A stretch of DNA of 64,000 nucleotides from Takakia lepidozioides (taxonomy: Eukaryota > Plantae > Bryophyta): NCBI GenBank assembly GCA_030704615.1, contig CM060732.1, positions 5,580,001-5,644,000 of the forward strand. The letters run 5' to 3'. A program made the position numbers and the translations under genes. The notes below the pieces were generated by a model. It was not told where the DNA came from. It searched no databases and was given only the letters and a program-made list of their open reading frames with translations. Below are positions 10,150 to 53,712 of the stretch, piece after piece; the stretch's first letter is position 1; the number at the start of each line of letters is the position of its first letter.

Positions 10150-10454
10150 CGTAGAGGTCGGCACGTGTTCGACAGAGAGCATCCCCTGGATGGAGATTCG
10201 GCACCGAATTTCCATCCGGGCACTCCCAAAGGAAGTCGTGTTGGGGGGTCAGACCGAAAACTGGCCGACATAAAAACCTCCCCAGATGGGAAAACGGCGC
10301 CGAATTTCAATCCGGGGCCGTTCCAATGCAGTCGGGGAGGGGGGAGAGGTCGGCACCTGGCCGTCATATTTCAACCCCCGGACGGAAATTCGGCACCGAA
10401 TATCCAACAGAGCGGCGGAGAGGCCGACACCTCTCCGACAGAGACCATCCCCCG

Positions 10455-11500
10455 GATGGAAATTCGGCGCCGAATTTCCATCCAGCAGGTAATTCGAATC
10501 CCCGACGGATGGAAATCCGGCGCCGCATTTCCATCCTGCAGGTAATTCGAATCCCCGACGGATGGAAAATCCGGCGCCGAATTTCCATCCTGCAGGTAAT
10601 TCGAATCCCGAACGGATGGAAATTCGGCGCCGAATTTCCATCCAGCAGATAAGTGGAATCCCGGATGGATGGAAATCCGGCGCCGAATTTCCATCCAGCA
10701 GGTAAGTTGGATCGCTGGCGTATGGATATTCGGCGCCGAATTTCCATTCACCAGGTATTTCATCGCTCAGAATTACCTTCCTGCAGGTAATTCTGATCGA
10801 TAAAGGTAGGAAGGAAGGTAATTCCTCGCTCAGAATTACCTGCACGAAGGTAATTCATCGATCAGAATTACCTGCAGGAAGGTAATTCTGAGCGATGAAA
10901 TACCTGGTGAATGGAAATTCGGCGCCGAATATCCATACGCAAGCGATCCGACTTACCTGCTAGATGGAAATTCGGCGCCGGATTTCCATCCATCGGGGGT
11001 TCGAATTACCTGCAGGATGGAAATTCGGCGCCGGATATCCATCCATCCGGGATTCCACTTACCTGCTGGATGGAAATTCGGCGCCGAATTTCCATCCATC
11101 CGGGATTCGAATTACCTGCAGAATGGAAATGCGGCGCCGGATTTCCATCCATCCGGGATTCCACTTACCTGCTGGATGGAAATTCGGCGCCGGATTTCCA
11201 TCCATCCGGGATTGCACTTACCTGCTGGATGGAAATTCGGCGCCGAATTTCTATCCATCCGGGATTCGAATTACCTGCAGGATGGAAATTCGGCGCCGGA
11301 TTTCCATCCATCCGGGATTCGAATTACCTGCAGGATGGAAATGCGGCGCCGGATTTCCATCCATCCGGGATTCCACTTACCTGCTGGATGGAAATTCGGC
11401 GCCGGATTTCCATCCATCCGCTTCGGAATAACCTGCGTGAGGGAAATTTCACGCGCCGCCCTACCTGCGCGGATGGAAATTCGGCGCCGGATTTCCATCC
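10455..11500. repeat. Tandem array of a 30-bp palindrome (GGATGGAAATTCGGCGCCGAATTTCCATCC), 53-bp period, folded into a large inverted repeat centred at ~10829
   Basis: About 10 consecutive 53-bp units at 10910-11420 (palindrome plus atccgggattc(ga/ca)(a/c)ttacctgc linker); mirror-image units at 10455-10801. Confidence 0.9.
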
Positions 11501-11789
11501 ATCCGCTTCCGAATTACCTGCGTAAGGGAAACTTGACACGCCGCCGCACCGAATTTGAAGCGCCGACTTACCTGGAGGATGGAAATCCGGCGTCGGATTT
11601 ACATCCATCTGCGCTCCGAATTACCTGCATGATGGAAATTTTGCGCTCCGACCTACCTGTGGATGGAAATCCGGCGCCGGATTTCCATCCATCCGCTCTT
11701 CGAATTACCTGCATGACGGAAATTTTGCGCGCCGACTTACCTGGCGGATGGAAATCCGGCGCCAGATTTCCATCCATCTGCTCTTCGAA

Positions 11790-12960
11790 TTACCTGCATG
11801 ACTGGAAAAATGGCGCCGAATTTCCGATTTTGGTGCCAGTCAGATCTGGGACTTAGCCATTTTCGGCCCCGAACTGGAAAAATGGCGCCGAAAAAAAAAA
11901 TAAAAAATGCCATTTTTCGTGTTCGGGGCCCAAAACGGCTAAGTCCCAGATCTGACTGGCACCAAATTCGGAAATTCGGCGCCATTTTTCCAGTCATGGA
12001 GGTAATTCGAAGAGCGGATGGATGGAAATCCGGCGCCGGATTTCCATCCATCCGCGCTCCGAATTACCTGCATGATGGAAATTTTGCGCGCCGACCTACT
12101 CCGGTGCCGGATTTCCATCGATCCGCTCTTCGAATTACCTGCATGACTGGAAAAATGGCGCCGAATTTCCGATTTTGGTGCCAGTCAGATCTGGGACTTA
12201 GCCATTTTCGGCCCCCGAACTGGAAAAATGGCGCCGAAAAAAAATTAAAAAAAAAATGCCATTTTTCGTGCTCGGGGCCCAAAACGGCTAAGTCCCAGAT
12301 CTGACTGGCACCAAAATCGAAAATTCGGCGCCATTTTTCCAGTCATGGAGGTAATTCGAAGAGCGGATGGATGGTAATCCGACGCCGGATTTCCATCCAT
12401 CCCGCGCTCCGAATTACCTGCATGATGGAAATTTTGCGCGCCGACCTACCTGGCGGATGGAAATCCGGCGTAGGATTTCCATCGATCCGCTCTTCGAATT
12501 ACCTGCATGACTGGAAAAATGGCGCCGAATTTCCGATTTTGGTGCCAGTCAGATCTGGGACTTAGCCATTTTCGGCCCCAAAAAAGAAAAATGGCGCCGA
12601 AAAAAAAAAAAAAAAAAAACGCAATTTTTTTAGTTCGGGGCCGAAAACGGCTAAGTCCCAGATCTGACTTGCACCAAAATCGGAAATTCGGCGCCATTTT
12701 TCCAGTCATGGAGGTAATTCGAAGAACGGATGGATGGAAATCCGGCCGAAAAAAAATAAAAAATAAAAATAAAAATACGTCATTTTTCTTGTTTGGGGCT
12801 CAGTCAGATCTGGGACTTAGCCATTTTCGGCCCCGAAAATGGCTAAGTCCCGAGGGTGGCTGGTACCAAAATCGGAAATTCAGCGCCATTTTTCCAGTCA
12901 TGCAGGTAATTCGAAGAGCGGATGGATGGAAATCCGGCGCCGGATTTCCATCCGCCAGGT
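11790..12960. repeat. Higher-order fold-back repeats (ctggaaaaatggcgccgaatttcc / cagtcagatctgggacttagccattttcgg and their inverses) around A-tracts
   Basis: About 3.5 copies of a ~350-bp unit, each an imperfect hairpin with a poly-A loop. Confidence 0.85.
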
Positions 12961-14544
12961 AGGTCGGCGCGCAAAATTTGGGGGAGAAGATGCAGAAATT
13001 CCTAGGAGGTGAGGTGGACAGTCCCCAAGACGGGATTTTTGAGAGGCATAGTGGAACTGATGCATCACAAAGCTCGGAGGATGAGGGGGATGAGGGGGAT
13101 GAGGAAGAAGGTGGGGCAAGTTCCTCGGAGGGTGTAGGAGAGTAGTGCCCATTCCGGCTATGACAGTTAGAACACACTTGTATAGACGTGGCTTGCCACA
13201 AAATTTGCAATAAAAGCAGCCCCCCCTTGAGGTCCATCTTGCGTGGCAGGTGGCTTACTTGGCTTGTTGTGCGTTGTGTCGCACCATCACCGACACCCTG
13301 CTGTATACGCGCAGTAGGGTCACTAGGCGGTCGGCCCCATTGAGGGAGTGCGTGGGGCGCACTATTTGTGGCCATCGCCTCGCCTTCGTAGACTGGTTGA
13401 TTGGAGTCGGCCCAGGAGAGGACGGAGTCGAGAGTGAGCGTCTCCCACACCCGAGGAGGGCCTGCCGACCATTCTTACCACCGTGGTACTGTCACCGAGG
13501 AACCACGTCATCAACTCTGATTCGTGAGTTGATTTCATCTGGTTCATTGACGCTACTAGACACAGTTAGAGACCGCCCAGTAGAGAGTTCTTTTGTTGCA
13601 TCATCTGCTGTAGCTCGTAGGACACTACCACCGGACCCAGTTCGGTCAATAGTTTTTCCTTTTGGTCTGAGGGTCCCTTGGGCACAGTTGCCTCGTTTAC
13701 CCGCCCGAGTGGTACATGCCGCCTCTTCAGTAGAGAGTGCCCCGAGTGGACTGACTGAGTACACTTCCTCGAAGGAGGAAGAGGACGAGCCCGCCACTAG
13801 TAGCCATCCTAGTGGGTCGGATTAGAGGTCTTTTATCGTTGATCCCGGAACTCCTACTATAGGGGTCCGGACCTCATTTGCTTTGATTGCTGAAGAGTAT
13901 GGTAGTGACGTGCGGGTCAGCACCATTGTACCAAACCAGCACCGTTATATGGGATGATTGCTTATGACAGGACTAACACAGCGGTAGAGGTGGGTCACTA
14001 ATAAGCCAGTGTAGAACCCTGTTTGGGATGTCCTTTGATGAAAATGAAACGCATCCGACACCGATTCTTCCATACACCACGGTCTACCTGAGAACGGATC
14101 GAAGAATATATCCGGTATTTGGGTGAAAAGAAGGTGCATAAGAAACGTTGGAACACCCGAACTCTACCCGACAGCACCACTTAGAATTTCTACTGGTGCC
14201 CAGACAGATTTGTATTTCCGGGTTGTCCCTGTCCAGGTATTTACTTAGGAGCATTACACCCGAGGTCATCATCCGTAGCCCACCTAAGGTGGCAAGTCGA
14301 TTTCTTTACTCACTGTGAGTCTTGTCAGTTCATTGCAAACCAGCACTTGATACTCCGATCGGAGTGCTCGCATTGCGAGGGGCCGTGGCCAATTGGGTAT
14401 CCCTTGATGCACCATAGATTGCACACTGACTCAATACGACAAACAAGACTAGACTATGAAACGTGGCCCGAGCAAGGCATGATGCATGAACAAGAATCAA
14501 ATATGAACTTTATGTATATAAAAAGAGTACATGATCCAACGACG

Positions 14545-30200: not shown

Positions 30201-33200
30201 GCAGACTGATACAACAACATTTGGACTACGATATTATGGCAAAAATCCTTATTCAGTAGAGGGAGAGACACGAAGAGAAAATTTATCACATCCACAGAAG
30301 GCCCTGAGCCGATGGGACACAGGAGGAAAAAGAGAGAGAGAGAGAATGTACTCCTAAGACGTTGTTTGCCGTAGCCTTGTGGCCATTGACCCTGCGCCCA
30401 GTTTGAGCGGAACACAAAGGGACAGAAACTATCTTTGTCACAGGCTGACACTGGTAGTATGACTTACCTTGAAACATGCAATTGATCCGAGTTTTCCAGA
30501 TATCCTCTAGAAATTCCTTCACACAAACATCAATCTGCTGTGTGATTTGCCCAATAACTAGACCCCAAAAGGGCCTGGGCTTTTGGCTCAGCCATGAGAT
30601 TTCCAAATATGGCAAACAGAGGTACAGGAACAATTCCTAATGAAGAGGATGTCTCTCTGGTGAGAGTACCAAAGACAATGCATCAGAAAGTGGATATTGT
30701 CTTCAGGTTGCCCACACAACGGGCACTTACAATCCCCTTTCCTCTCTGCGTCTGTTTGCTGTTCAAAGGTAGGCTTCCCGCCCTGAATTCAAATTTCAGT
30801 TTAGTGCCGAGAGTGGGTAGACCCTTGAGGTTATCCATGATGGCCCCACCCATGTCACAGTCTGCAAACAAGTTCAGGGAAGTTTTCTGCCTACCTTCAT
30901 TTTCCTCAGAAAAAATCCTGGCAACAGACATGGCTTTGGACACTACAGAGTCTCTCATCTCCGAGAGAGGGAGAGAATGTACTCATAAGACCTTGTTTGC
31001 CGTAGCCTTGTGGCCATTGACCCTGCGCCCAGTTTGAGCGGAACACAAAGGGACTGAACCTACCTTTGTCACGGGCTGACGCCAGTAGTAAGACTTACCT
31101 TGGAATAAACAATTGATCCGGGTTTTCCAGATATCCTCTAGAATTCCCTTCACACAAGCATCAATCTGCTGTGCAAGGTTTGCCCAATAACTAGGCCCCA
31201 AAAGGGCCTGGGCTTTTGGCTCAGCCTCGAGACTTTCAAAGGTGGTAAACAGAGGTACAGGCACATCCCCTTGATAGATTTGAGGAGAGTGTCTCTCTGG
31301 TGAGAGAACCCCGGACAATGAATCAGAAAATGAATGTTGTCTTCAGGTTGCCCACACAACGGGCAATTGCACTCTCCCTTTCCTCTCTGCTTCTGTTTGC
31401 TGTTCAAAGGTAGGCTTCCCATTTCAGTCTAGTGCCGAGAGTGGGTAGACCCTTGAGGTCATCCATGATCCTCCCCCATGTCACAGACTGGAAACAAGTT
31501 CAGGGAAATATTCTGCCTAACTTCATTTTCATCCGACAATTTCCTGGCAACAGACATGGCTTTGGACACTACAGCCTCTAGGTCAGAGTTATCCAGCAGG
31601 GTCAAGACTTGCAGATTGAGAGTCAGATCCTTGAGAATCTCTTCTACTCTCTTCCGCCAGGACTTAGCCTGTTTGACAGCGCGATCCTGTTTCCAAGATA
31701 TAGAGTCGATTAACTTAGGATATCTGATGTTGGACATATGTTGCAGCTGACCCCACCATCTGACCTTGAATTCATCTCGTCGGGAGCTTAAAGAAGGGAT
31801 GCCACACTCACCCCGAACAGCCACATTGGCTATTTCGAGCATGCTGACATGCACTCCTTAAGCACCCCCACTTGAATAGATTCTAGAGACTTAGCCTGGT
31901 CGGAGTTATCACCCATATTGCAGATGCGTACTCCAAGGCAGGTCTAATAACGTGACAAAGCATGGTTTTCTTGACCTCAGAGTTGATCCTCTGCAGTGGA
32001 AAAATTTAGTGAGACCCAGCGCTTTGCGCTTGCCAGTTTGAACAACTTTCTGCATATGTGCATCCCAATTACAGTCTGTTGTGTGTGGTTTGCCCAATAA
32101 CTAGGCCCCAAAAGGGCCTGAACTTTTGGCTCAGCCTTGAGACTTTCAAAGATGGTAAGCAGAGGTTCAGGCACAATTCCCTTGATGGATTTGAAGAGGG
32201 CGTCTCTCTCGTGAGAGTACCCAGGACGATGAATCAGAAAATGAATGTTGTCTTCAGGTTGGCCACACGACGGGCAATTGCAATCCCTCTTTCCTCTCTG
32301 CATCTGTTTGCTGATCAAAGGTAGGCTTCCCGCCCTGAGTTTAAATTTCAGTCTAGTGCCGAGGGTGGGTAAACCCTTGAGGTCATCCATGATGGCCTCT
32401 CCCATATCACAGACTGAAAACAAGTTCAGGGAAGTTTTCTGCCTAACTTCATTTTCATCAGAAAAATTCCTGGCAACAGACATGGCTTAGGACACTACAG
32501 CCTCTAAGTCAGATTTATCCAGCAGGGTCAAGACTTGCAGGCTTAGATTCAGATCCTTGAGAATCTCTTCTACTCTCTTCCGCCAGGAATTAGCCTGTTT
32601 GACAGGGCGATCCTGCTTCCAAAAAATAGAGTCAATTAACTTAGGATATCTGATATTAGACATATGTTGCAGACCCCACCATCTGACCTTGAATTCATCT
32701 TGTCGGGAGCGTAAGGAAGGGATGCCACACTTAGCCTGGTTGGAGTTATCAACCCAAACTGCAGATGCGTACTGCGGAGAGAGAGGGAGAGAGAGAGAGG
32801 TGAGCCTCCCAAGCGGGTAATGCATCCAAATCCAGACAAAGCTCATCACTGGCATTAAAAATCATCAGTAGGCAGTTACTGAATAAGCCTCTTGAAAGAC
32901 TCTCCTGAGCTGCATCACACTGATCTCATTCCTAGCCAGAGATATAGGTAGGCACTAGAAATTCATAATTAAAAATGTCTCTTTGCATAAATGCTGAAAA
33001 CTGATCTGCCACCTACCAGTAGAGACGCTCGTTAATAGGAATAATTGTGCGTTCCGCCATGACACTCGATTTCCCTGCACAAAAAGAGACTGGTTCTTCG
33101 TAAAATCTCAGCTCATTGCTAAAGACCCCCTTTGGATGGAGTGGGAGGAAATCTGAAGAGGACAACAGCGAGAATTGCTATACCTTGTATATTTGACTCC

Positions 33201-35390
33201 AAGTGCAGCTCCTTGCACTGCTCCTGATCCAGTTTCTTCAAACAAGGAAGAAGCTTGACTAGCATGTATTTTAGAAGCTTTATCTTCTCACTGTCACTTA
33301 TTTCCACGCTCTTCTGCTTCCCAAACCCCAACTATACAACATCACATACTTGATAACTTTGGATGTGCAACACAACAAATAGGAAAGAGACCACCTACCC
33401 TAATTGCAAAACCTAGGACTTTACCACAAGATTGCTTACCCTTTCTGGTCCACAGCTACGGAGGCAGGCCTTGCAGTTACAGTTTCCCATGCAGAAAGGG
33501 CAATTTTGTGCTACATCCTCCTCTGACAAGAGTGGGTACCTGCACAATAACAACGATCAGAGTCATAGTCTTGCTTTGCAAGCAACACATCCAATGTTGC
33601 ACATAGATATACTGATGCTAAGTTTACCCTTGCTTAAGCAGGAGTCCAACTGATGCCATGCAGGTTGCACAGAGGTAGATGGCAGGAACCATGTACATAC
33701 CATGTTGCAATACAAGGTGAGCAGTAGCGCTTGCGCACACACTTGCGGCAGAACACCACTCCTCCCTTATCGTTTCTCTGGCATTGATGACACATCCTGC
33801 TGACACTCTGCTCCCCTACTCTTTCTGTACTGCTCGCCTGCAGGTTCCATGTCCAGGTCCCACATCCATCAGACTGGCAATATGACACTAACATTATCTA
33901 CCCTTTAGAAGTTTCTTCTGGATTGGAACAAATCCAAAATATCCCTGATGACCTCTACCTGCATGACATTACTCTGCATTACCACAGAGCCTCCTGAAAG
34001 GAGCGATACGGGTTTACCAAGTTATAAAACGAGTTACCATACATTATACCACAATGCAGCACTGGCAAACACCAAGTAGTTTCTCCATCAAATCTTCAAT
34101 TTGAAGCATCCGTTGATACAATGACCTTCCAAACTTTGTAGAAGTCCTTAATCCAGCTAGTCTGAATTTCAACCAGTACTCCCAATGAAGTTGAAGACTA
34201 CTGCAGGGGTGTAAAAAAAGACCAATGCAAAGAAACCAAGCTAAATCCAACACTGGTAACACTAGACTTGACAATGAAACTGCTGCCAAGCACTCACCAA
34301 TCTCCGATGACTGCGTACAGTTTCGAATTCATCCTGAAAGCTTGTCCATTCTTCGTTGTAATTCACCACTTTGCGTCGAGTTCGTAAGGCTCTGTCTTCA
34401 TTGTGAATGTGAGTGCATTCCTCAGTACTGCAGGGGACTCTGTCTTGATTCTGAACAGTGGTCTGTACTGTGTTGCCTGAATCTGCAGCCCAAGCAGTTG
34501 ACTCTTTCACAGACTTTTCAGGTAGTGAATGACCTCGGGCATTCCCCTCCCTTCCAACTATGCTTATTGTTCTTGCCTTCGGTATTGATGATGTCCATTC
34601 CTCATTGTTTTTGACAACTTTGAGGCATATTTGTAAAGCTCTGTCTTCATTGTGACCGCGAGTGAATTCCTCTGTACTGCAGGGAGTACTGTCTTCATCC
34701 TTAACCATGGTCTGTACTGCGTACTCTGCCTCTGCAGCCCGAGCAAGTGACACTTTCTGGGACTTTTCAGAAAACTCATGACCACCACGGATTCTCTCCC
34801 TTCCAACTACACCTATCTTTCCTTCGTTCTGTTGCATGATTTCCCATCCTCTTTTAGTTTTCTCTTTTAAAGGGTTTTTGGGCTTTCCACGTGTCTTATA
34901 TTTTATATGAGCATGATGACCGCAGTAAGTGCTACCTTCCACCACCATCCTGGAGCACCGCCACTGTTTTCCATCAGACCTAACGCAGCGTAGCTTGTCG
35001 TCTGGGACAACAACTTTTCCCTTGACCTTTCGTGATTGACCACTGTTCATCGGGCTACTGCTACTCCTTTGACTGCTTGTTGTTATCTCGTGCTTCAATT
35101 CTGGTGCATTTCGAGGAGGTGCCCTTCGCATCCTGTTGTCACTCACGCGATTGCACGGGACACGTGTGACGTGGTAAATATGCAAGCAACTACTGCCTAC
35201 CTGTCGATATTCAACCAAAGCCCCGAGTAGCAACCACCTTACACATCGGCACAACTCCTTGAAGTGAAAGACCACAAAGGCTGACTATCCCCAGGACAAA
35301 TAACGAAACTTACGGTGGCACGGCTGTCTTCAATGATAGTGGGGAGCTACGGTCATCAGATGAAAGCCGTCTCACAACGGGCTTTACCAT
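27248..35390 (-). CDS. KDM3/JMJD1-family JmjC H3K9 demethylase (plant JMJ24-29/IBM1-like clade): WRC, RING-like Zn fingers, JmjC; 3' end uncertain, may extend to ~26.2 kb
   Basis: Exon 35390-35314 splices in frame to 35132; WRC motif [17 protein letters not shown]; [17 protein letters not shown]; [15 protein letters not shown]; [26 protein letters not shown]; [29 protein letters not shown]; MLKLKDWPP; [26 protein letters not shown]; [16 protein letters not shown]; [25 protein letters not shown]; [14 protein letters not shown]; canonical GT-AG introns. Confidence 0.93.
30330..32800 (-). mobile_element. Three head-to-tail 3' fragments of a non-LTR retrotransposon (LINE) inside a KDM3 intron
   Basis: RT tail ([18 protein letters not shown]) and C-terminal CCHC motif [18 protein letters not shown] in three copies (~30.35-30.96, 30.96-32.1, 32.1-32.78 kb); GA/CT microsatellite at ~30330, ~30965 and ~32780. 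Confidence 0.8.
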
Positions 35391-37394
35391 CGTCTTCAGT
35401 ATTCCATCTTAATCTTTCCTTCAGCTCCTGGATAACCAACCCTTCCAAACATGATGAAACATCTCTGTAACTATAAATAAATAAACATGTACCCAAAGGT
35501 GCACCAGACTGTCAAGCAATTCCAATTCGAAAGGAGAAGATTCCAAACCCCGATGGATCATCAATACTTGACTGTACTCAGTGCACATTGAATAAAGTGA
35601 ACCTGTCACGAGTTAACTAAAAACGGTGAAGCAACCAATTTCCGCACATACGTAGTTGTAGCCTGATGCAACAAGAGGCTGTGCAGCGTCTTCAAAGTTC
35701 CACAGGTCACCAAAATCACTGTCTTGGACGGCAAATGAGGACGGCTGAAAAATCCCTACAATGCACACGAAACCGAAAAAAGGAGCCGAGTTTGTGCTGT
35801 AGAAGAGATCAAACAATTAGTGAGTCGCGGAAATTCCAGAGAAATCCTGTTCTTACACTAAAATTTCTCGCTTCTGTTTTCTCTGTTGCAACCTCAATAA
35901 CTCAAGAAACTACCCTTGGGCAAATATCAGAAAAGGCTACCCATGGAGTACGGGGAAAAGAGAAACTTGGACAATTAACACCTTGGATAAGCGCCAAATT
36001 TCGGAGATTGAACCAGCGCTCTTGCATGACTTTGTTATCTTCGAGGAACCATGGCTGCCAAGAGCTTCTCTCAAGAATTGAGAGGAACGGAACCAGGCTA
36101 CGTAGGTACCTGTGCTCCTCCTACATATGGCCTTGCATACAGCACCATCACAAACATCACCTCTCCACTTCCCTCGTTGGACTGGTTTAGTAGAGTAGTG
36201 GCATGGCCCCCGGGACCTAGTACCTACACGTAAAAACTTGCTCTAGATTTTCCTTCGTATTTCTTAGGTCATTTTGAAGCAGACCTCCAGTGGGGCGGGA
36301 GCACCAACGGCATGGACCCGGTGGTTTCAAGTCTGGACCACGTTGCCCTAGAAAGATTCGTGGCACACAATCTTGTCCCTTGGATGAGATATCATCTAGG
36401 GTTGATGTAGAGCCAGCTAGTCAGAGGGTGCAACCACATGAGCAGATTTTTACGCAGGCGAAAGTTCCGGCCCACGGACTTTCCGCATCCGATATGCCCT
36501 GGGGCGGGCCCACCCTTAACAACGCTCAACAGACCCCCGAACCGGGTCGCAGGGCCCACTTAAATGTAAATTGTGTTTTTTCAGATGTGATTCAAATTCT
36601 ATGAAATTAGTGCCATTGGGTGGCCCCTCTCGTGCACTACCAGGATTGGGCATTGATTGCCATAATTTGGAGTTAAAGCAAAGTTGTGTCATTACGTAAT
36701 CAAGGGGGTCAGGAATTGATGAAGGTAATTTTGTTTTTTTCATGTGAAGATTTCTTGACACGTGTGTGTAGTAGAGCTGGTTTGGTTGCAAAGGAGAGTT
36801 TAATTACTCCACTTCACAGGGCGAGTTTGCATTTTTTAAGTCCTACGAAATTTCCACAATTTATTTAGTAACTGCCTTCCAAGTCTTTTATTGACTAATT
36901 CCTACTGCCTAGGCCTACGAGCCGCCTATAACCGGGACATCCGTTTTTCCCTTCACAAAGCGCCTCTCATTTTTGAATAATTGGGAGTTTAAGGCTCAAG
37001 TGTGAGCCAGGCAGCGGCCCCATGCTGGGATGTCGGGCGCCCCCGCGACCACCCGGCGGGTCCAGGTTCCGGGTCTGCTCACTCTGCTTGAGGGTAGGAT
37101 CTGCTCACTGCTGGCAGATCGGGTCTGCTCGCGGGTCTTGGGTCCAACTAAATGGTCTGCTCGTCGCGCCGCAGCCCGCCCGCCGGGACTTAGAATTTTT
37201 TGCGGGAAAACTCGCCTATCACAAAAGGTCATTAATACACGTACAACGCTAGCCGAAATCATCGTTAATGCACATTTGGCACAGCCATAGTTGAACCCAT
37301 AGCCTAATACCACTCATTGCGCCCAACCACCACACTACCCGCTGCTTGATGTTACCTCAACATTTTTTTTTTATCTCTTAACCTAGAAACAGCC

Positions 37395-37620
37395 GCAGTC
37401 AGCCCCATGCCGCCTAGGGTCAAGGCCTGCGGACCCTACCTCGCGGCAGACCATACCTAGTGGCAAACCCATCCTCGCAGCACCCACCGGGCCGACCTCG
37501 CGGCAACCATACCTGGCGACAGACCCCTCCTCGCGGCAGACCCCCTGGGCCGAGCCTGGCGGCAGACCCATCCTTGCGCACACCCACCCGGGCCTAGTCA
37601 TGGGTCGCGGCGGGGCCACC
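37395..37620. repeat. GC-rich degenerate tandem repeat (cctcgcggcagacc)
   Basis: Motif recurs about five times. Confidence 0.5.
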
Positions 37621-38022
37621 CAGGGGCGCTTGACGTCCGTGCATGGGCCCCTGCCTGGCTCACACGGGGGGCTGCTATTTCATGAGCGGCATGAACATGA
37701 GTAGGAAAAAAAAAGCATGAGCGGGCCGAATTGTGTCCACGGAAATAGGGTTAGGAGGCACGGAAATAGGGTCATGTGGACTCGTCATAGCAATGAATGC
37801 AACATTTTATTGCAAATTTGGTGGCAAGCCACGTCTATACAAGTGTGTCCTAACTGTCATAGCAGGAATGGGAACTACTCTCCTACACCTTCCGAGGAAC
37901 TTGGCCCTCTTCTTCTTCCTCATCCCCCTCATCCCCCCCATCCTCCGAGCTCTGTGATGCATCGGTGCAGTATGCCTCTCAAAAATGTCGTCCTCTCCTT
38001 GGGGGACTGTCCACCTCACCTC

Positions 38023-41000
38023 CTAGGAATCTTCTGCCTCTTCTCCCCCACTTTCCTCAGCAGATTCCAAGACAAATCTACGAGCCCGACGGGCTCTAAT
38101 AGCTGTTGCCTCCTCCCTCATCTTCATTTTCTTGAGGCTTGCCTCGTCTAAAATCTGATGTACACGACTAGGTTCGGAACACCTCCTAATGGACACCGAA
38201 GCAAGTCGGGCAGCATAAGTAGGAAGGATGTAGTCCCTTTCCTGGACTAGGCATGAAATCCCCCCGGCAAAAAAATGCACGTTCCTCCTGCCCATGAACT
38301 CTCCGGTGTAGACGTCCCTCTTGCCGTACTTGGCATCCTACAGTAAGAACAAATCCACTTCAAGAATGTCAATACCAGCAGAAGCAGAAAGGTTTTTCAA
38401 TGAAATAAGAGAGCGAGGGAGGTGCCTCACGAAATCTGGAGGCAACTTACAATGCGACCACTCACTCGTACACCGGGGGCTCCTCGGCCTCGATCCCAAC
38501 TTGTTCCTCCCCCTGCTCCTTCTCGGATTTTTCCTCATCCTCCGAGGATGCCTCTTCCTCTTTCGGCAGACGTTCAGCCGCTACAAATTCCGAGTTGTGG
38601 AGGGCAGTATCTGGCTTGAAGGCGAACACATGCCTGTCGGACAACGTCCCTGCCCACATTGAAGCACCTGAGGAACAAAGCGGGCGGTTTATAGCTTGCG
38701 GCATGCAATTGCAATCGGGCCAGGGGACAAACTGAGCACGTGAAGGCTTACCCGTGCCGCATGTGAGGTCCAGAATCCGCCCTTGGACATCCGAGCACGT
38801 CTCCATGAGGGTTTGGATGAAAGCAGGGCTCCGGGTCCGGCTGTACCGCCACGGTTTGCCTGTCTTTGTGTCCTTCGGCATATTGGAGTGAGGCACATAG
38901 TTGTAGAGGACATCGTAGGTAACAGGGTCCACAGCGGCATCAACAAGACGACCGTCGTTGCGGAATTTGAACGTAGACCCTCTCTTCACAAAGCAATATG
39001 CCTCAAACACCAATGTCTGCACATCCAACAAAAGAGGGATCAACTCCGGATCTTGTTTAGATACACCACAATATGAGGTGAATGCAATAGATTGATAACT
39101 TACACTTTGGCCCTCTGTTCGCAACCCCTGTGTATTGATGCAGAACCATTTTCTGAGGAGGACCGGGGTGACACTTTTCGGTGTCCACCTTACCACCACA
39201 TTCTCTGTGGTCTTCCCTCTTGTGGCAAGGACAACCACACATCCACTGTCATCCAGAAGCATCCCCGCCAGCCCAAACCCGGCTTTCCAGTAGTCCTCAG
39301 TAAACCTGTTCCAGGTGGGCACACCATCCAGCCCTCCAGCAGCTCCCCATCTGGAATGTCAAGGAGAATCATGTCGCAAGCTCTCTCCACCTCAACCCCC
39401 CCCCCCCCCCCCCCCCCGAGTGCTCTTGCAATCCGTGCTCACAGCCGTGAAGAATTCCATCATGGCTTCAAAACCAGGGGTGTCTTTAGGCTCTGTACCG
39501 GCAGCCCTCTTCTTGGCTTTCCCCTTCTGCTCCGCCAGAGACTTGCTGTGTGCCACCTTCTTCGCCCTGGCAGCGAGAGCGTCAAGGAAGCTCTCATTGA
39601 CGCATTGGATGATGGTTGGAGGTTCTAGCTTTGGGCTGTGTGTAAACGTCACCGCCGAATACCGCCGTATAGGCTCGCCCTCAAATGCCAACTTCTTGGC
39701 AGAGCCAGTCCCACTCCGAACTGACTTGGGAACCCGGACGACCGGTGACTAGGTAGCAGCAACAGCAGTCGCAGGACCTTGAACAAAGTCGTCGTCCGAG
39801 TCACTCTCTTGGGTCCCCTCTTGCGCCTCCTCCGATGCCCCGATGGTTTTCTGTTTTTTGGGTGTTACTGCACTCACATGTTTCCTTGTCCTTTTCCTTT
39901 GGCCTTTATTCTTCTCATTCAATTTCTCCTGAATTCCTGCCTGAGCAAGCTCTACCGCTTTCCTGGAGTTCGCAAGCGTTTTTGCCTCTTTTGCACCCAG
40001 CGGAGGCAGCGGAGCCCGGTTTCGTCGGGCCTCAGCATCCAACTTCAATTGAAACTCGGATGGGTCGAGCATGCCGGGGGAAGGTCCACATACCAAGGGC
40101 AATCACGCAAATGTTCCAGATGCCACTCCTTCACAATATCGTCAGTGTACATGGAGTCAGCCCCAGGGTTCCTCCATGCCAGGAAGAATGGTGGCTCGAA
40201 AGACAGATGACCTTTCTCCAAAAGGGAGAACTTGCAGTACGTGCATTCATGAAAAACACAATGAGGTCCCTGAACTGCAAATTCGGCACCATTTTCCCAG
40301 GTTGGAGCGGATCTGAGTGGGCCTAGAAATGGAAAAATGGCGCCGAATTTCCAATTCAGGGCCAGCCACCCTACGGACTTAGCCATTTTCGGAGCCCTGA
40401 CTGGAAATTCGGCGCCATTTTCCCAGGTCCGGCCCGAAAATGGCGCTGTCCAGCGGCAATAGGGCCCAGAACTGGAAAAATGGCGCCGAATTTCCAGTTC
40501 AGGCCAGCCACCCTAGGGATATAGCCATTTTCGGAGCCCTGACTGGAAATTCGGCGCCATTTTCCCAGATCCGGCCCGAATATGGCTGTCCCACAAGGGC
40601 AATAGGGCTCAGAACTGGAAAAATGGCACCGAATTTCCAGTTCAGGGCCAGCCACCCTAGGGACTTAGCCATTTTCGGAGCCCTCACTGGAAATTCGGCG
40701 CCATTTTCCCAGGTCCGGCCCGAAAATGGCTAAGTCCCAGAACGGCAATAGGGCCCAGAACTGGAAAAATGGCGCCAAATTTCCAGTTCAGGGCCAGCCA
40801 CCCTAGGGCCTTAGCCATTTTCGGAGCCCTGACTGGAAATTCGGCGCCATTTTCTCAGGTCCGGCCCGAAAATGGCTAAGTCCCATATGGCATTGACCTG
40901 GAAAAATGGCGACGAATTTCCAGTTCAGGGCCAGCCACCCTAGGGACTTAGCCATTTTCGGAGCCCTGATCTGGAAATTCGGCGAAAAATGCAAGGACTG

Positions 41001-43662
41001 TAAGGAAGGCATCGCGTATGTACCTGTACCGAAGGCGCATTGCTGCTTTGTCCGCGTTCGGCTGGTCGGTGAACTCGTGGCTCCGGCGGGCATGTGGTAT
41101 CTCCCGAAAAAATAGGTCGGTTTTGTAGAGCAGAAAGTACCTCGTCACATAGTCGCGTAGGCTCTCTGCTGCAGGAGAAATCTCCATCTTGAACTGATGT
41201 GCTTGTGTGTCCAGCTGCTCTTGCGCATTCGTCGTCACCTGTGGAGATTCTCCATCAGATCGCATTGCTGAAAAAATACAATGAATCCACCCCCTACAAG
41301 AGTAGAAGCGCCAAACGAAGCGTGGGGAAGTACCTGAAACCACCATGTCATGCGTTCATCCACATGTCGAATGTGGGGTCAGACAGTTTGTCCAGTTTGG
41401 GGAAGCTCCACATGTCCCTTGTACTTTGGGAACCATTCCAGATTTGGAGCCACCGGGTCTGTCCAACCACCCAGCATATTCGTAAGCGCCAAACACCACA
41501 AAAACGAGTTGTTGCCACCACAATTTGGTTAAGAATGTATCACCTTTTCTGCACCATCCACACAGGATGTGGCTAGACGATGGAGCTTCTCCAATGTCAT
41601 CGTGGGCTTCAGAGCGCGGGAGTAGTGCTTCCCCACCTCCACCAGAAAGTCGGCACCAAGGGCGGGATCAGCTATGGCCACGTACTTTACCATCCGCGAC
41701 TTGTACTTTATGCGGGCCCTCACCTCCGCAGCTTTGAGATACGATTTGAGTGCCGGGAGGGTTAGATTCTTCTCCTCTGACTCCATGTAGAACCTCCGCG
41801 CATGTGCCAAATCCTGTTGAATTTTCGTCTGTCAAGAATGCGCACATAAGATTAGAGATCTTGCTCAACACTTTTTCTTCTATTGGGGGAGGAGAGACAG
41901 ATTAGCTCAACAAAACAGTCAGGAGCTTTACCCGAAATATGTAGTCCACCATGGCGTCCATGCTCAGCCTATACCAGGTTCTGTCTACCTTTGCCTCCGA
42001 CTTGCGCAGGAGGTCGGCACTGAGCGAATTGGCAAACTCTTGCACCCCCTGCTTCCCGACATCCTTAACTCGGAAGAGCATATGGGACAAATTGGTGGCA
42101 ATGAAGGCATTCTCAGTCACCCTGCAATGCCACATTTCCATCAAACAATTCTGAAATGGGAATTTACAACAAATATGAGGATTCGCAATGAAATGACTTA
42201 CAATTGGATGGGTCCGAAAGCAAGAGGCGTTGTAACTTACGAGTTGATGTCCGCCATTGCAGCTTTGAGAAGACTGCGATCTTTGGGCCCCGCAACCTTC
42301 AGCACAACACACTCCATGGCGAAATGCCAATCGAGGTCGTTGGGGTGGGCTTCGGCTATGTGCTCCATCCATGCCAGGAGGCGATGATTGTCGTCCCACA
42401 CGTAAAACATCTTTCCGGACAAGTGCTGGAAAAGAGGATCAGTAACAATCGATCTCTCGAACTCCTCATTTCGCCTTTGCCAATGGGGACCCCATTTGTC
42501 CACCTCATCGGAAGTGTGGGCACGGGAAGCTCCGTGGTCGTTCTCAATGGAAACGTAAAACGCGGCAGACCCCATTCGATATCCATCCCGGAAAGAGAAT
42601 TTCAGCTTGTCGATATCGCCTGGGAGGGCAGGTCTCACCACCTGCAAAGATACCAAGCGGCAAAGGGGAATTCGAAGCTTGGCCGGGTACACCATGCCCC
42701 CCAGCACCCTGCCAATGTTGCTGTGGGTTGCCTCCAACATCTTGGCAGCGGCCAACTTCATATCCGCCTCCGACAAGACGTCTGCTGCAGAGGGGTTCTC
42801 CGGCAGCCCACCAGGACCGCCAAATCCAGCCTGTATGCTGCGGGTTTGGGGCCTGGGGATGTCCGGGAGGATGTCATCCTGGTCAGAAAGCTCGGTGTCG
42901 TCCTCCTCAACATGGTGAACCACAGGCGAAACCACCTCGAGCACTCTCCCTGTCTCTACTGCCATCTCCCCGGCTTCACCTCGAACTTGCACAATCCGTG
43001 CTCTTTGTGGTGTTCTTTCCTCTCCTCCACTCTCCACCGTATGGGTAATTGCGGGGGCTGCTCTTGTCCGCGATGGTGTAACCGGTGTGTTACTACCTCT
43101 TTGTGGTGTCTTGGAGGGATCCACCATCTCTGTGCGTCCCTTGCTTACATTGGCATCTGTCATTTGGGCACCCCTGGCCTCTTCAGTGGCCTTTTCTCTT
43201 TCCTCCTGGCTAGCCTTCTGTCTCGCCTGTTCTTTTGCCCTCTCTTTTGCCCTCTCACGGGCTTTTTGTTTCTTACTAGGGCTAGCAGCAGGGGAGCCCT
43301 CCAGGATGACCACCTTTGATTGAGGAGAAGGAACACCCTCGCGCGCACTGCTCACTCCCCCCTCCACAGCCCGTGACGGCTCTCTCGCCGGGGATTGCAT
43401 GTGCTTAGCTTTTCTTCTTCTTTGCGTGGGCGGGCCCTACTTCATGTGCATCAACAACCTCCATTGCCGGATCTGCTGTCCTCACGTCCTCACGCCCTTC
43501 ACCTGCCATGCCGCCTGCACCAACCTCCCCAATGCCTATTCTGTCGTACCCTCGCTGCAGGTCCTCCCGTCCACCAACAAAGAGTTGAAGTTTTCCCTCT
43601 CGCCCCAAGTTGGGTGATTCAAACATGCGATGAGTTGGAGCGGTCGATGATACTACCAGCAT
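38023..43662 (-). pseudogene. Multi-exon gene encoding a ParB/Srx-like domain and a C-terminal beta-class N4C/N6A DNA methyltransferase-like domain
   Basis: ParB-like LRIPLCRLVSLQVVRPAL..DIDKLK..F..GY...FYVWDDNHRLLAW (42240-42700); MTase motif IV-like CDMILLDIPDG (~39346-39378), WRYSRTRSPAFIQTLMETCS, motif I RILDLTCGTG|GAS..AG..RHVFAFKPD (38610-38850); GT-AG introns at e.g. 42240-42122 and 38751-~38668; several stops and frameshifts. Confidence 0.7.
40288..40983. repeat. 696-bp block of about five ~143-bp fold-back units inserted in a coding exon, flanked by a 9-bp direct repeat aaattcggc
   Basis: aaattcggc at 40279-40287 and 40975-40983; gccagccaccct at 40361, 40503, 40647, 40793 and 40930. 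Confidence 0.85.
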
Positions 43663-44579: not shown

Positions 44580-45340
44580 ACGTAGAGGTAATTCGAAGCG
44601 CAGCAGAATAGAATTCCGGCGCCGGATTTCCATCCTGCAGGTAATTCGGAGCGCGGATGGATGGAAATCCGGCGCCGGATTTCCATCCGCCAGGTACGGC
44701 GGCGCGCAAAATTTCCGTCATGCAGGTAATTCGAAGAGCAGCAGGATGGAAATTCAGCGCCGAATTTCCATCCTGCCAAGGTAGGGCGTCGCGCGCGAAA
44801 TTTCCGCCACGCAGGTAATTCGGAGCCGGATTTCCATCTTGTCAGGTAGGGCGGCGCGCGAATTTTCCGCCACGCAGGTAATTCGGAGCGGATGGATGGA
44901 AATCCGGCGCCGGATTTCCATCTGCCAGGTTCGTCGGAGAGCGGATGGATGGAAATTCGGCGCCGGATTTCCATCCTGCCAGGTAGGGCGGCGCGCGAAA
45001 TTTCTGCCACGCAGGTAATTCGGAGCCGGATGGATGGAAATCCGGCGCCGGATTTCCATCCTGTCAGGTACGGCGGCGCGCAAAATTTCCGCCACGCAGG
45101 TAATTCGGAGCGGATGGATGAAAATCCGGTGCCGGATTTCCATCCGCCAGGTTGGTCGAAGATCGGGGGCGCCGGATTTCCATCTGCCAGGTTGGTCGGA
45201 GAGCGGATGGATGGAAATCCGGCGCCGAATTTCCATCTAGCAGGTAACTCAGATCGCTGGCGGATGGAAATTCGGCGCCGAATTTCCATTCGCCAGGTAA
45301 GTCGAAGCGCCGAATTACCTTCCTGCAGGTAATTCTGAGC
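44580..45340. repeat. Array of the 30-bp GGCGCC-centred palindrome with gcaggtaattcg linkers
   Basis: About 12 copies of ggatggaaat(t/c)cggcgccg(a/g)atttccatcc; homologous to 10860-11800. Confidence 0.9.
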
Positions 45341-45449
45341 GTGGCCGCTTGGTTTTTCGGAGAAAAACAAACTAAACTGTTAGTTTTGTGGCTGAAGTCC
45401 ACTTTTAGACACGTTTTTCATGGAATCCTTGACTGCTAGAGGGAAATCC

Positions 45450-46330
45450 GAACGGCCTCGGACGGAAATTCGGCGCCGTTTTTCCATCCTGGGAGGTTTT
45501 TATATCGTCCAGTTTTGGGCATCACCACCCGATCGGACTTCCTTTGTGGGGGCCCGGATGGAAATTCGGCGGCGAATTTCCATCCGGGGGATGGTCTCTG
45601 TCGGACAGGTGCCGGCCTCTACGCCCGAGGCGACTTCGTCCGGGCATCCCCTGTTGGATATTCGGTGCCGAATTTCCGTCCGGGGGTTGAAATGTGACGG
45701 CCAAGTGCCGGCCTCTCCCCCCTCCCCGACTGCATCCGAACCCCCCCCGCACGGAAATTCGGCGCCATTTTTCCATCTTGGGAGGTTTTTATATCGTCCA
45801 GTTTTGGGCCTCACCACCCGACCGGACTTCCTTTGAGGGGGCCCGGATGGAAATTCGGCGCCGTTTTCCCATCTGGGGAGGTTTTTATGTCGGCCAGTTT
45901 TCGGCCTGCCCCCACGACACGACTTCCTTTGGGGGGGCCCGGATGGAAATTTGGCGCCGAATCTCCATCCAGGGGATACTCTCTGTCGAACACACGCCGG
46001 CCTCTACGCCTGAGGCGACTTCATCCGGGCTTCCCCTGTTGGATATTCGGTGCCGAATTTCCGTCCGGGGGTTGTAATGTGAGGGCCAGGTGGCGGCCTT
46101 TCCCCCGAGCCGACTGCATCCGAACGGCCTCGGATGGAAATTATGTCGGCCAGTTTTCGGCCTAACCCCCCGACACGACTTCCTTTGGGGGGATCCGAAT
46201 GGAAATTCGGCGCTGAATTTCCATCCGGGGGTTGTTCTCTGTCGGACAGGTTCCGGCCTCTCTGCTTCATACGTGCGGCCCCTGTTGGATATTCGGTGCC
46301 GAATTTTCATCCGGGGGTAGTAATGTGACG
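45450..46330. repeat. Higher-order repeat built from variant palindromes (ggatattcggtgccgaatttcc, ggaaattcggcgccgttttccc)
   Basis: cctgttggatattcggtgccgaattt at ~45650, 46035 and 46281; ggaggtttttat..cagtttt recurs. Confidence 0.8.
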
Positions 46331-46614
46331 GCACGGTGCCGGCTTCTCCCCTTCAGCCGACATCATCCGGACGGCCCCCAACTTTCTGACTGCATACCGT
46401 TGGCAGTTATTGCGCAAAGACCAGGGGCCGCATTCCTGAGACAAGGTTCATTAACACTCTGACTGTGGATTTTTGAGATAGTTGGCTCCCTGGATTTGGA
46501 TCAGGCTTCGTCGCTCGGACAAATCGGCACCGCATTCCTTCCCATCGCTGCATCCCCCTTCTACCAGGGAGCTTGCCCGCACGCCATCCTAGGAGTCTTG
46601 TGTGCACATCTCCC

Positions 46615-49100
46615 ATGGCGGAAAACCCGAGCGCTACAGTGTACTGCCCTCCTCACGAGCATAGAGCTTCATTTCCGTGCAGAGGGGACATCTGCCGGGT
46701 GATAGAGAAATATCTGTGCGTTCGATACCACCTGAAACCGGGGTCGGTTTTTTTGGAGGAGGAAAGGAAGGACTCAAACGGCATTGTTGTCGAGAGTATT
46801 GTTGTGCTCCACGATGATTTCGGCGATGGCAGGGAATGGCGAATTCCACCATCGGACAGCGTCATATACAGGGCTGTTGGGGACTTCATTTGCCCGCCAA
46901 ATGCACCTTCTATCCTGGCGCCTTCCACGAAACAATCCGCGAATCAGAGAGTGGCTACCTCAAAGAGAGAAATCCGCAACGAAGTAAATCCAGAGCCGAA
47001 CCCATCCATGAAGACGAGCGAGAACCGGGTTGTTCACAACCTGTCCGACTCAGACGAGGTCATGGAAGTTCCGAGGTCGTCCTGGAGATCAGGCAAGTCC
47101 TCAATGGACGTCAGTGGACGAGGGTCATATTCCCAGCACGAGCACCGCAGTTCGATCTATTCTTGAAATTCTGCAAGGGCTTCACATGGAGGGACACCGC
47201 TCGGAGCTGGCCGGGCTGGACTACAGCAAGTTCGCAATTAAATCGGTTACATGCCTTCCCGCAGACGTCGACGGTAATATCTTCTTTGAGTTCCCTCCTC
47301 GGACGGACTACTCGAGGGCGTCCGGAATGTTGACAGATATGGATAGAAAACATGATGGTCATCCTTGGTGCGTCACCAAAACCACCAGCATGAAGATGCT
47401 CGATGGTGTGCGGGTGCGCTATGTTGTTTGTGCGGGCGCGTTGCGGTGTTTCTCCCCAACTTGCTTCCATTTTAAATCCAGAGCTTACAGGAACGAGACC
47501 GATTGGACAGGCACAGCTCATCAACCATTTCGTGCTCAGGAGAAGGTTCCGAACTCCACATTTAAGTGTGCGCATTGTAAAGAACCACCACACTGCATGT
47601 CTGTTTGTAATGCCAAGCAGTTCTATGTGTTGCACTGTTTCCCTGACCTCACCCGAGCTTGCATACACGTTGGTTCCCATTGTCACAAATTGGCGAGGGG
47701 GAACTCGCGGGAGGCTGCCCACGAGGCAGAGCAGCTCGTTCAGGAGGAGGTTAAGTTGAGACCGGGTGCCAAACCCAAATAGATACAGCTCCAAGCCGCC
47801 CATAAGATGGCCTTGGCCAGAATTATGTCGGAAGACGGCTCCGATAGAGTTCCTCTCGATGAGAAGGAAATGGAGGCATTTCTGGAGTCGGTGTCCCACG
47901 TATGTTCACCAAATGTCCGAAACCACATTGTCTCATGCAAACAGAAAATTGGGCGTGGCTCGGATATGCACTCCATTTTGGAGGTGAAGCGACGATGTGG
48001 ATATGACTACATTCATGGAAGTAGGTTTCCAGGACAAGGGACTGAGGCAGATCGTTGTTTCGTATTCAAAATGTCCACGTGTGGACGTGGCAGCGGCGTC
48101 GAACTGGTCGATAGGATGACGAGTGGGGACTTATCAAACAGTTGGGTCATGTTCGACCATATCAAGCGAATTACAAATCACCAGTGGGTGACAATGGGTG
48201 CACATGTCTACGACACCCACTGCAGGATGCTAATGACAATTGCTATTTGTGAGATGAAAGGAGAGGACACATAATCGGAGATGCTTCTTTTACAGGGAAT
48301 AAACGAACAGATGGCCAAGGCGGGATTGCCCCCTCCCAATTTCCGTGGTTTCATGGCGGACAACGCACAAGCAAATTGGGCTGCCATCCGAAGGGTGTAC
48401 GGGCAAGACCCCAATGTTCCCATGGAAGGCAAGGAGAGATCTTGTGGGTTCCATTTTCTGCAGAGCCTTTCGCAGTACACAACCAGGCTCGTGGCGCCAG
48501 ATTTCAGAGAGGAGCACCGTTCCATGTGTCTTGCGTGGAAGCGCGCTCCCACCTTGGATGATGCAAAGACACAGTTTGCATGTATACGGACTTGGTGGAC
48601 ATCGTCAGGTGCTGTAAGGAAATCAGACGAGGGAGCAATGGTCAGTTGGCTAGCATGGTGGCATTATTGATTCCTCCAGTTCAGCGACTATATGTTGCAC
48701 GAATTCGCGTCCCGTTGAATATTATTCTTGGCATTATTTGTAACTTGCTTGTAACCTCAACATGTGCTTGTGCAGGAAATGTGTCTCGACTCCGACACCG
48801 ACATGCCCACGATAAACATGGCCGAATCAGTGCATTCTTCCTGGCGTGCCTCCTCTGCGGCGCATCTGGTGGACATCCTCACTGCCACAACGGAGGACAT
48901 TGTGAGGTCAATTATGCAGCAATGCAGATACAACGAGTTCTTGAAAGGGAAACAATGGGGCTTGGGGCCGGACAGGTAGAAAATGCTGATGCGGACTGCC
49001 TCCAGATCGAAGAATCCTCGGAAGTGGGCGGCGGCCTTGCGAGAGGGCCTTCGGGACACGCCATTGCTTCGAAGAGGCCAACATTTGGAAGGAGATCGCC
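46615..49100 (+). pseudogene. Decayed GCM-like/MULE DDE transposase, paralogous to 15191-17877, 3'-truncated
   Basis: MDRKHDGHPWCVTKTT..VRYVVCAGALRC (GCM-like), TRACIHVGSHCH, MFDHIKR, FMADNAQAN, SCGFHF, WWTSSGA, NMAESVH; frameshift at ~47150 and stops at 47780, 48272, 48668 and 48977. Confidence 0.85.
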
Positions 49101-53400: not shown

Positions 53401-53687
53401 ATTGAATCTGCTCCTCTCGAGCTATTGCCAGAGCTAGCATCTCCGCCTTTTGTTGGCTTAGCACTCGGAAGTTCAATCGTCTCACCCTCCTTCCTCTTAC
53501 TCCAAAAGCATTCAAGGATCCTGCCTTCTTATGCTGATTACGTAAATTGCAATAAGGACATAGTTTTAAACCAGGTGGGGGAACCTTACTATTACAAATG
53601 ACTTCCCCTGTCATCTCGTATTCCTTCAACAAAAAGTAGGTATCTTAAAAATTTATTAAAACATCACTATAGCAAACCGCATCGTCT

Positions 53688-53706
53688 TTCCCCGGTAGCG
53701 GCGCCA
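53688..53706 (-). promoter_or_regulatory. Primer-binding site, tRNA-Asp type
   Basis: Minus strand TGGCGCCGCTACCGGGGA just inside the putative LTR; resembles the TGGCGCCGTTGCCGGG PBS of non-chromovirus Gypsy elements. Confidence 0.75.
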
Positions 53707-53712
53707 AAAAGA

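Follow-up and report, generated by a model that had tools for sequence, protein, structure and literature searches.

A stretch of 64,000 nucleotides from Takakia lepidozioides (contig CM060732.1 of assembly GCA_030704615.1, positions 5,580,001 to 5,644,000; the whole stretch is called the window below) contains a likely Mutator-type plant transposon with an accessory gene beside its transposase. Near the end of this long, multi-exon gene lies a methylase-like domain (39381-38462, minus strand) with the fold of a bacterial-type beta-class DNA amino-methyltransferase. Its motif IV reads DIPD, and a nonaromatic motif is found throughout its family. With a probability of roughly one half, we read the domain as a pseudo-enzyme kept in a self-binding, VANC-like anti-silencing protein that would act at the element's own palindromes.

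A sequence-only reading of this DNA had picked out the peptides CDMILLDIPDG and LLDDSGCVVV, followed by motif sequences split by an intron. All of these peptides are confirmed; the minus strand encodes them within 39381-38609, with WRYSRTRS at 38851-38828, DLTCGT from 38770, and GASMWAGTLSDRHVFAFKPD ending at 38609. The domain is laid out as follows.

39104..39381, minus strand: exon part A, from motif IV to the strand ahead of intron 1
39360-39349, minus strand: DIPD codons (motif IV), which profile alignment matches to phage D[LVIP]PY (hhalign 98.9%, E 2e-17)
39103-39017, minus strand: intron 1, 87 nt, GT..AG, phase 0, at the same position in metagenome loci L001 and L006
38752..39016, minus strand: exon B, coding for the FxF hairpin, then WRYSRTRSP (motif X) and the greater part of motif I (DLTCGT)
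38751-38668, minus strand: intron 2, 84 nt, GT..AG, phase 1, within the last Gly of motif I
38462..38667, minus strand: exon C, with the motif II strand (AFKPD) and an acidic tail

The reading frame continues across both introns. The one in motif I, which had been taken as a sign of long residence in a eukaryote, occupies an identical phase-1 position in 7/7 metagenome loci (L001-L007), in agreement with that view. Two features had been overlooked: the second intron, at 39103-39017, and a frameshift just after DIPD in the window copy. One base is absent near 39330, inside exon part A, leaving DIPD out of frame with the remaining domain. We compared copies through contigs of public sequencing runs (X1, X6 and X8) aligned to the window; 22 contigs of run X1, with a summed depth of 102,768 out of 235,546, carry the base, as do the long X6 contig and the X8 contig. 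With stops and frameshifts in both accessory gene and transposase, the window copy is a dead pseudogene that adds family evidence only. At 39383-39427, just upstream of DIPD, about 22 consecutive C (G when read along the coding strand) also shift its frame; at this place relatives P0037 and P0057 encode a Gly-rich stretch. Because the 770-nt X8 contig joins three consecutive pieces (39382-39104, 39016-38750 and 38665-38459) without either intron, some copy of the gene is likely transcribed and spliced; that X8 is RNA is the tool's guess, and none of the listed runs with matching contigs is on record as RNA.

The unspliced open reading frame (ORF) of the window matched no Pfam family at E up to 1 and nothing in PHROGs, longer proteins or metagenome contigs; PDB sequences gave only weak ResA matches (E 0.5-1.3) and NCBIfam three weak matches (E 0.1-0.24). 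Searching with phmmer recovered 17 proteins at E up to 0.001, one of which, P0011 (5139 aa), was a spurious match and was excluded from the family. Profile searches added 21 proteins and then 4, including KC19_N032100 of Ceratodon purpureus (P0037). This relative scores 35 bits against Pfam PF01555 (N6_N4_Mtase) over positions 2-217 of 221, above the gathering cut-off of 26.7, while P0012 (26.5 bits) and P0014 (20.8 bits) fall below it. The Atlas neighbors of P0037 are N6_N4 methylase clusters (cosine 0.93-0.94), and the family profile matched M1.HpyAVI in the PDB at E 7e-6. Once spliced, with an X at the break, the window model matched a family profile built without it at E 2e-56 and a profile of six phage methylases at E 5e-4; the best of 201 shuffled or reversed controls reached E 0.75 and 1.4 against these two profiles.

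Aligning the family profile to that of the six phage methylases (98.9%, E 2e-17) sets DIPD opposite D[LVIP]PY, and the motifs follow the permuted order, IV ahead of X, I and II. Structure prediction was run on P0014, whose AlphaFold model has a predicted local distance difference test score (pLDDT) of 70. Foldseek placed M1.HpyAVI, CcrM, M.RsrI, M.MboIIA, N4CMT and M.PvuII among its matches (E 3e-7 to 1e-4). With VIA-align the top seven rows gave Z 12.7-11.3, with CcrM, N4CMT and M.PvuII at about 12, at root-mean-square deviations of 3.5-4.9 Å over 171-192 aligned residues. All 12 matches at Z of at least 8 are DNA amino-methylases, with no protein or small-molecule methylase among them, and unrelated folds score 4.3 or less. 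The earlier proposal of a beta-order N6_N4_Mtase fold is therefore borne out by the Pfam score of P0037, the alignment to phage enzymes and the structural matches, all of them to Rossmann-type methyltransferases in this motif order. We conclude that DIPD occupies the motif IV position of this fold.

The family stands apart from its phage counterparts. In a tree of 24 rows, 18 family rows lie on one side of a branch from the six phage enzymes (support 100/100), and the window groups with P0001, P0020, P0005, P0039 and P0003 (99/98). Searches of phage and plasmid sequences with tblastn returned distant annotated methylases only (21-44% identity over parts of the query), and no family member was found in viral contigs.

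Motif IV is where the family departs from these enzymes. The 14 aligned family rows carry D12/E1/N1, I8/V5/L1, P13/S1 and E7/D4/T2/S1 at its four positions, and two more readings come from L002 (DQPE) and L007 (DIPE). An aromatic residue at position 4 occurs in 0/16 family sequences, which contain near-copies and represent about nine lineages, against Tyr in 6/6 phage relatives. The catalytic motif [DNSH]PP[YFW], a consensus taken from PMC10073500, is likewise absent in 16/16 rows, and the family reads D/N/E-x-P/S-(D/E/S/T) instead. Position 4 is acidic in 13/16 rows and Ser or Thr in the other 3; the subfamily of P0015, P0017 and P0022 has DVPT, DVPS or DVST, so the acid is not invariant. P0011 and eleven short matches (53-85 aa) were left out, the fragments P0010 and P0044 were excluded from the motif IV count, and the frameshifted L007 was excluded from the alignment; also dropped were three truncated rows whose residues the alignment had pushed into the column of the motif I Asp.

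The sequence-only reading had called DIPD noncanonical. The loss of Tyr is real, but position 2 gives no cause for surprise, since the first Pro is missing in 4/6 phage relatives too (DLPY, DVPY or DIPY). Ile at position 2 is ordinary, and the change of Tyr to Asp, Glu, Ser or Thr is the only real departure in motif IV. The mixture of residues at position 4 looks like a relaxed or turn-forming constraint and not like a fixed new catalytic residue.

Other parts of the active site have changed as well. The His of motif X is lost in 20/20 rows and the first Gly of motif I in 15/21, being kept in 6/21. In the window copy, Lys replaces the ribose-binding acid of motif II (AFKPD), where 9/10 family rows have Glu; in M1.HpyAVI this Glu is reported to be essential for SAM (S-adenosylmethionine) binding, which an Ala mutant abolishes (PMC5173035). 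Trp follows motif IV in 14/14 family rows. FxF is kept in 14/18 rows and aligns with the YxF part of the dimer motif described for beta-class enzymes (PMC5173035). Between L001 and L006 the ratio of non-synonymous to synonymous rates (dN/dS) is 0.18 (16 synonymous and 10 non-synonymous changes, p 2e-5), and the domain thus appears to be under purifying selection in this one pair. For L002 against L001, dS is saturated and dN is 0.22.

The proposed targets of the protein lie in the element itself. A 22-bp palindrome with the core GGCGCC has 61 occurrences in the window when up to 4 mismatches are allowed, against none in any of 20 window shuffles. Of these, 8 fall within an accessory-gene intron, 19 in the span between accessory gene and transposase, and 34 belong to a likely derivative; all 27/27 within the element fall in noncoding DNA, which makes up 3.7 kb of its 11.4 kb. 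The palindrome is absent from L001-L007. The remaining parts of the element and its derivative are listed here, with a strand where one applies.

37695..37735: element left end (approximate), with contig depth rising at ~37734
38023..38337, minus strand: likely further exon of the accessory gene (LPTYA peptide), frameshifted in the window copy
39382..40236, minus strand: linker and middle domain of the accessory gene, with frameshifts and a stop in the window copy
40237..41023: accessory-gene intron, with 8 palindromes in a ~144-nt tandem unit; the flanking exons match P0056 on both sides (upstream only at E 0.11)
41024..43436, minus strand: 5' exons of the accessory gene (ORFs)
42740-42241, minus strand: putative ParB-like domain (VWDDNHR), from motif resemblance and the published algal architecture
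44610..46308: array of 19 palindromes between two divergent genes
46477..49100, plus strand: Mutator-like DDE transposase, divergent from the accessory gene, with stops and a frameshift, cut at ~49100
10150..13215: likely nonautonomous derivative, with 34 palindromes and 237 nt matching 38050-37805 (89%)

We favor a pseudo-enzyme because position 4 draws on a variable D/E/S/T set and because residues of motifs X and I have been lost. The protein would perform no N6-adenine or N4-cytosine methylation. It may dimerize through the retained FxF hairpin, and the domain would be kept for dimerization and for contact with DNA or protein. A ParB-like N-terminus could target the palindromes in the manner of parS sites, and the element would be shielded from host 5-methylcytosine (5mC) silencing, as VANC does for VANDAL elements.

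Several observations weigh against this interpretation. Motif I keeps its Asp in 21/21 rows, Thr in 20/21 and the last Gly in 19/21; the motif IV Asp is kept in 12/14, the motif II Glu in 9/10 and the motif X Lys in 16/20. This conservation of the SAM pocket spans 25-50% identity and is more than a fully dead fold needs, and most family members probably still bind SAM or S-adenosylhomocysteine. The motif IV loop is poorly modeled in P0014 (pLDDT below 50, residues 16-37), and the near-copies reduce the number of independent motif IV rows. The motif II Lys may be private to the window copy; the variant table was read for 40 of its 299 rows. The comparisons of L001 and L006 with L003 give dN/dS of 0.74 and 0.76, neither significant. 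The ParB-like region found no support in Pfam, PHROGs, NCBIfam, PDB sequence or viral-contig searches, and its single-sequence model, at pLDDT 33, was not used for a fold search. Binding, dimerization and anti-silencing are themselves inferred.

Because several SAM contacts are retained, the domain might instead have altered its chemistry, a possible but distinctly less probable outcome. SAM would still be used, and the acid at position 4 would accept another substrate, for example a polyamine, a hydroxyl held by a metal, or a protein amine such as that of Lys or Arg in a histone, so that a protein guided to the palindromes would write a mark other than N6-methyladenine (N6mA) or N4-methylcytosine (N4mC). 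The acid in 13/16 rows and the purifying selection between L001 and L006 are in keeping with this. In spermidine synthase and Hen1, a D/E-x-x-D/E sequence located where strand 4 ends is a binding site for amines or a metal. Algal relatives are described as swapping effector domains, a 2-oxoglutarate (2OG) oxygenase behind ParB or SET beside the methylase (bioRxiv 2025.02.11.637652). Against altered chemistry stand the Ser or Thr at position 4 in 3/16 rows, the Lys at the ribose-binding acid of the window copy, and the restriction of all 12 strong fold matches to DNA amino-methylases, with none acting on proteins or small molecules. Spelled out in full, the proposal would have land-plant transposons carry a former phage DNA amino-methylase that now uses SAM to write another kind of mark, whether on histones, on other proteins or at some unusual position in DNA; ParB would guide it to parS-like palindromes, where it would shield the element from host 5mC silencing. 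We hold this version to be tentative and rather unlikely. Computation does not separate a dead reader from altered chemistry, and we would place the dead reader ahead. Both had been among three readings offered from the sequence alone; the third, decay, falls away.

On the view of simple decay, the window copy would be the dead remnant of an enzyme with DIPY, its Tyr changed to Asp by a point mutation. A single base change does separate the codons, and the window copy has several frameshifts, stops and private substitutions. However, at the DIPD codons (39349-39360) no other letter reaches 1% among 590 run X1 contigs of the same species over the stretch 39230-39382, and none is listed in the spliced X8 contig; the variant table hides differences near stretch ends (one known difference, 17 nt from the start, does not show up in it), and the DIPD codons lie 22-33 nt from the end. 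No contig of runs X9 and X11 aligned on motif IV. An acid at position 4 also recurs across divergent relatives as DIPD, NIPD, EIPD, DIPE, DVPE, DLPE and DQPE. DIPD is therefore fixed among copies and the nonaromatic motif is family-wide, and decay is refuted as far as these data go, leaving it hardly any probability. As to the conservation of DIP[DY], for which contigs of public runs stood in for intact copies, relatives vary among D, E, S and T at position 4, and none of the 16 sequences has Tyr.

Canonical DNA methylation also rates low. The motif IV aromatic is reported to stack the flipped target base (PMC4738411, PMC10406627), changing SPPY to APPA in N4CMT is reported to abolish activity (PMC8885841), and METTL14, with EPPL and no aromatic, is described as inactive (PMC5023411). 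An active N6A or N4C methylase marking the palindromes would need another aromatic, such as the Trp after motif IV or one before motif X, or a partner subunit in place of Tyr. The fold and Pfam family, the retained Asp and Pro-3 of motif IV and the invariant Trp would suit it; for the Ectocarpus ParB-methylase the predicted product is 4mC or 6mA (PMC12477816), and MpDN4MT1 shows that beta-class enzymes can be active in land plants (bioRxiv 2021.02.12.428880). Yet [DNSH]PP[YFW] is found in none of the 16 rows, the same Trp in 6/6 phage enzymes that retain Tyr points to a structural role of its own, and an acid would be a poor stacking partner for a base. We consider such an enzyme improbable. 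More improbable still is a noncatalytic DNA-binding helper of transposition, which would serve the transposase by bridging or compacting the palindrome arrays and take no part in silencing. The likely derivative at 10150-13215 has kept 34 palindromes but hardly anything more, which would suit cis sites needed for movement, but the arrays lie in an intron and between promoters and not at the placed element end, a layout that matches VANC targets.

The accessory gene starts near 43436. Its 5' exon holds VWDDNHR, a sequence that resembles the ParB/Srx signature, with no profile or fold support for a ParB domain. Because the exons at 40245-40063 match N-terminal parts of P0014, P0055, P0056 and P0057 (E 3e-5 to 2e-4), the linkage of the middle domain to the methylase domain is conserved; the middle domain itself gave no usable Atlas match. 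At the other end of the gene, the exon C stop codon overlaps a likely splice donor, GTGAGT, and GTGAGT or GTAAGT stands at the stop in 5/5 loci listed. Together with the downstream LPTYA peptide, of which weak likenesses follow the domain in L002-L006 (E 0.16-2.9), the conserved donor suggests one more 3' exon past the apparent stop. The loose end of an X8 contig at 38446 continues into ~38337. In L003, an 82-nt direct repeat and telomere-like CCCTAAA repeats follow the methylase-like gene (1931-2143 and 2358-2443).

The transposase shares 43% identity over 373 aa (E 1.5e-88) with a SWIM-bearing transposase at 17350-15194. Its D, D, CxxH and E motifs were read by eye against the Mutator signature; it has no Pfam MULE match, and the SWIM finger of the window homolog scores 19.0 bits against a cut-off of 19.6. 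The Cys/His-rich N-terminus at 47012-47782 (plus strand) has no Pfam match, and we take it to resemble a GCM-type zinc domain. That second Mutator-like transposase with a SWIM finger, at 15191-18406 (minus strand), is a long frame broken by an assembly gap, with no accessory gene seen alongside. A Gypsy-like gag-protease-reverse transcriptase fragment (49100-55300, minus strand) interrupts the transposase of the element; its putative long terminal repeat has no partner within the window. The right end of the element is cut off at ~49100, and no terminal inverted repeat emerged when blastn was used to look for an inverted counterpart of the left end, nor was a target-site duplication, which is 9-11 bp long in Mutator-like elements, seen within the window. 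Just beyond the left end, the stretch 37000-37665 has short tandem repeats and an inverted pair of 21 nt, and may be a small element in its own right. In the derivative, the 237-nt match corresponds to the 3' end of the accessory gene, and the palindromes are arranged in tandem units of 53 nt and upward, with large internal inverted repeats.

Over 4 kb, 15,671 contigs of run X1 align to the window, and 11,434 do so with an identity of at least 95%, numbers that suggest many similar copies of the element. Among the differences listed, the window copy has 14 near-fixed ones of C-to-T type, 10 at CG or CHG against a background of 35% (p 0.005); this excess fits host methylation of the dead copy. 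CpG observed/expected is 0.63-1.27 in the element, 0.32-0.34 in a JmjC gene and a LINE-like repeat, and 0.61 in the Gypsy fragment. We rejected the higher CpG of the element as evidence of anti-silencing, given the value of the Gypsy fragment and that age can explain it. The JmjC gene is a neighboring host WRC and JmjC histone demethylase gene (KDM3-like, by eye) at 28270-35284 (minus strand), one intron of which holds a tandemly repeated LINE-like fragment at ~30300-32900.

According to bioRxiv 2025.02.11.637652, no transposon system other than VANDAL/VANC is known to bind its own sequence and modify it. If our reading is true, the element would represent a second, built from prokaryotic parts and spread in non-seed plants, and sequence-specific self-protection would be a general transposon strategy. 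The family-wide change in motif IV poses a sharp alternative, between a pseudo-methylase long kept as a DNA-binding module and a familiar fold with a new substrate. A spliced, annotated moss homolog (Ceratodon KC19_N032100) and a defined 22-bp candidate site make an assay practical.

Transposon cargo combining ParB and a methylase has already been published for algae, and our literature search found no paper on a land-plant form of the gene or on the altered motif IV. Sola1-1_Ec32 of the brown alga Ectocarpus, in the Sola-1 superfamily, has an accessory gene with a ParB-like and an N4C/N6A methylase part, and similar proteins are cited for green and red algae (PMC12477816). Both are transposon accessory genes, the ParB-like part being putative here; the present one comes from a land plant and a Mutator-like element, whereas an active enzyme is predicted for Ectocarpus (PMC12477816). 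The comparison is one of described architecture. In red algal Plavaka elements, PAG2 is reported to fuse a PF01555 methylase to SET and PAG3 a ParB-like domain to a 2OG oxygenase, the latter flanked by tandem inverted-repeat arrays, and homologs are also reported in Chondrus Mutator elements (bioRxiv 10.1101/2025.02.11.637652). PAG2 and PAG3 share with our element a PF01555 methylase and a ParB-like domain, the latter putative in ours, carried as transposon cargo beside inverted repeats. They differ in that methylase and ParB lie on separate genes, with SET and 2OG oxygenase, and the parts of that report available to us do not mention an altered motif IV.

VANC of Arabidopsis binds short target motifs that have multiplied into tandem arrays within introns and between genes, and its anti-silencing activity has been demonstrated (PMC5735166). 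Our element resembles VANDAL in having an extra transposon gene and candidate target words in noncoding tandem arrays. The VANC targets reported there are nonpalindromic motifs of 8-9 nt, in contrast to 22-bp palindromes here; the portions of the report at hand mention no methylase fold, and anti-silencing was shown for VANC but is inferred here. In permuted fold and motif order, the domain resembles CcrM, M1.HpyAVI, M.MboIIA, M.RsrI, M.PvuII, rotifer N4CMT and Marchantia MpDN4MT1. For CcrM, M1.HpyAVI, N4CMT and MpDN4MT1 the reported motif IV is DPPY or SPPY, M1.HpyAVI having DPPY and MpDN4MT1 TSPPY (bioRxiv 2021.02.12.428880), compared with DIPD in the window copy. The family further differs from beta-class enzymes in lacking the aromatic and the motif X His, in having introns and in riding in transposons. 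METTL14 and the methylase domains of DIRS1 are described as amino-methylase folds kept as inactive modules (PMC5023411, PMC4738411), which is how we would picture the Takakia domain. METTL14 belongs to a different clade and, as described, also lacks the motif IV aromatic but binds no SAM, whereas most members of the present family keep several of their SAM contacts.

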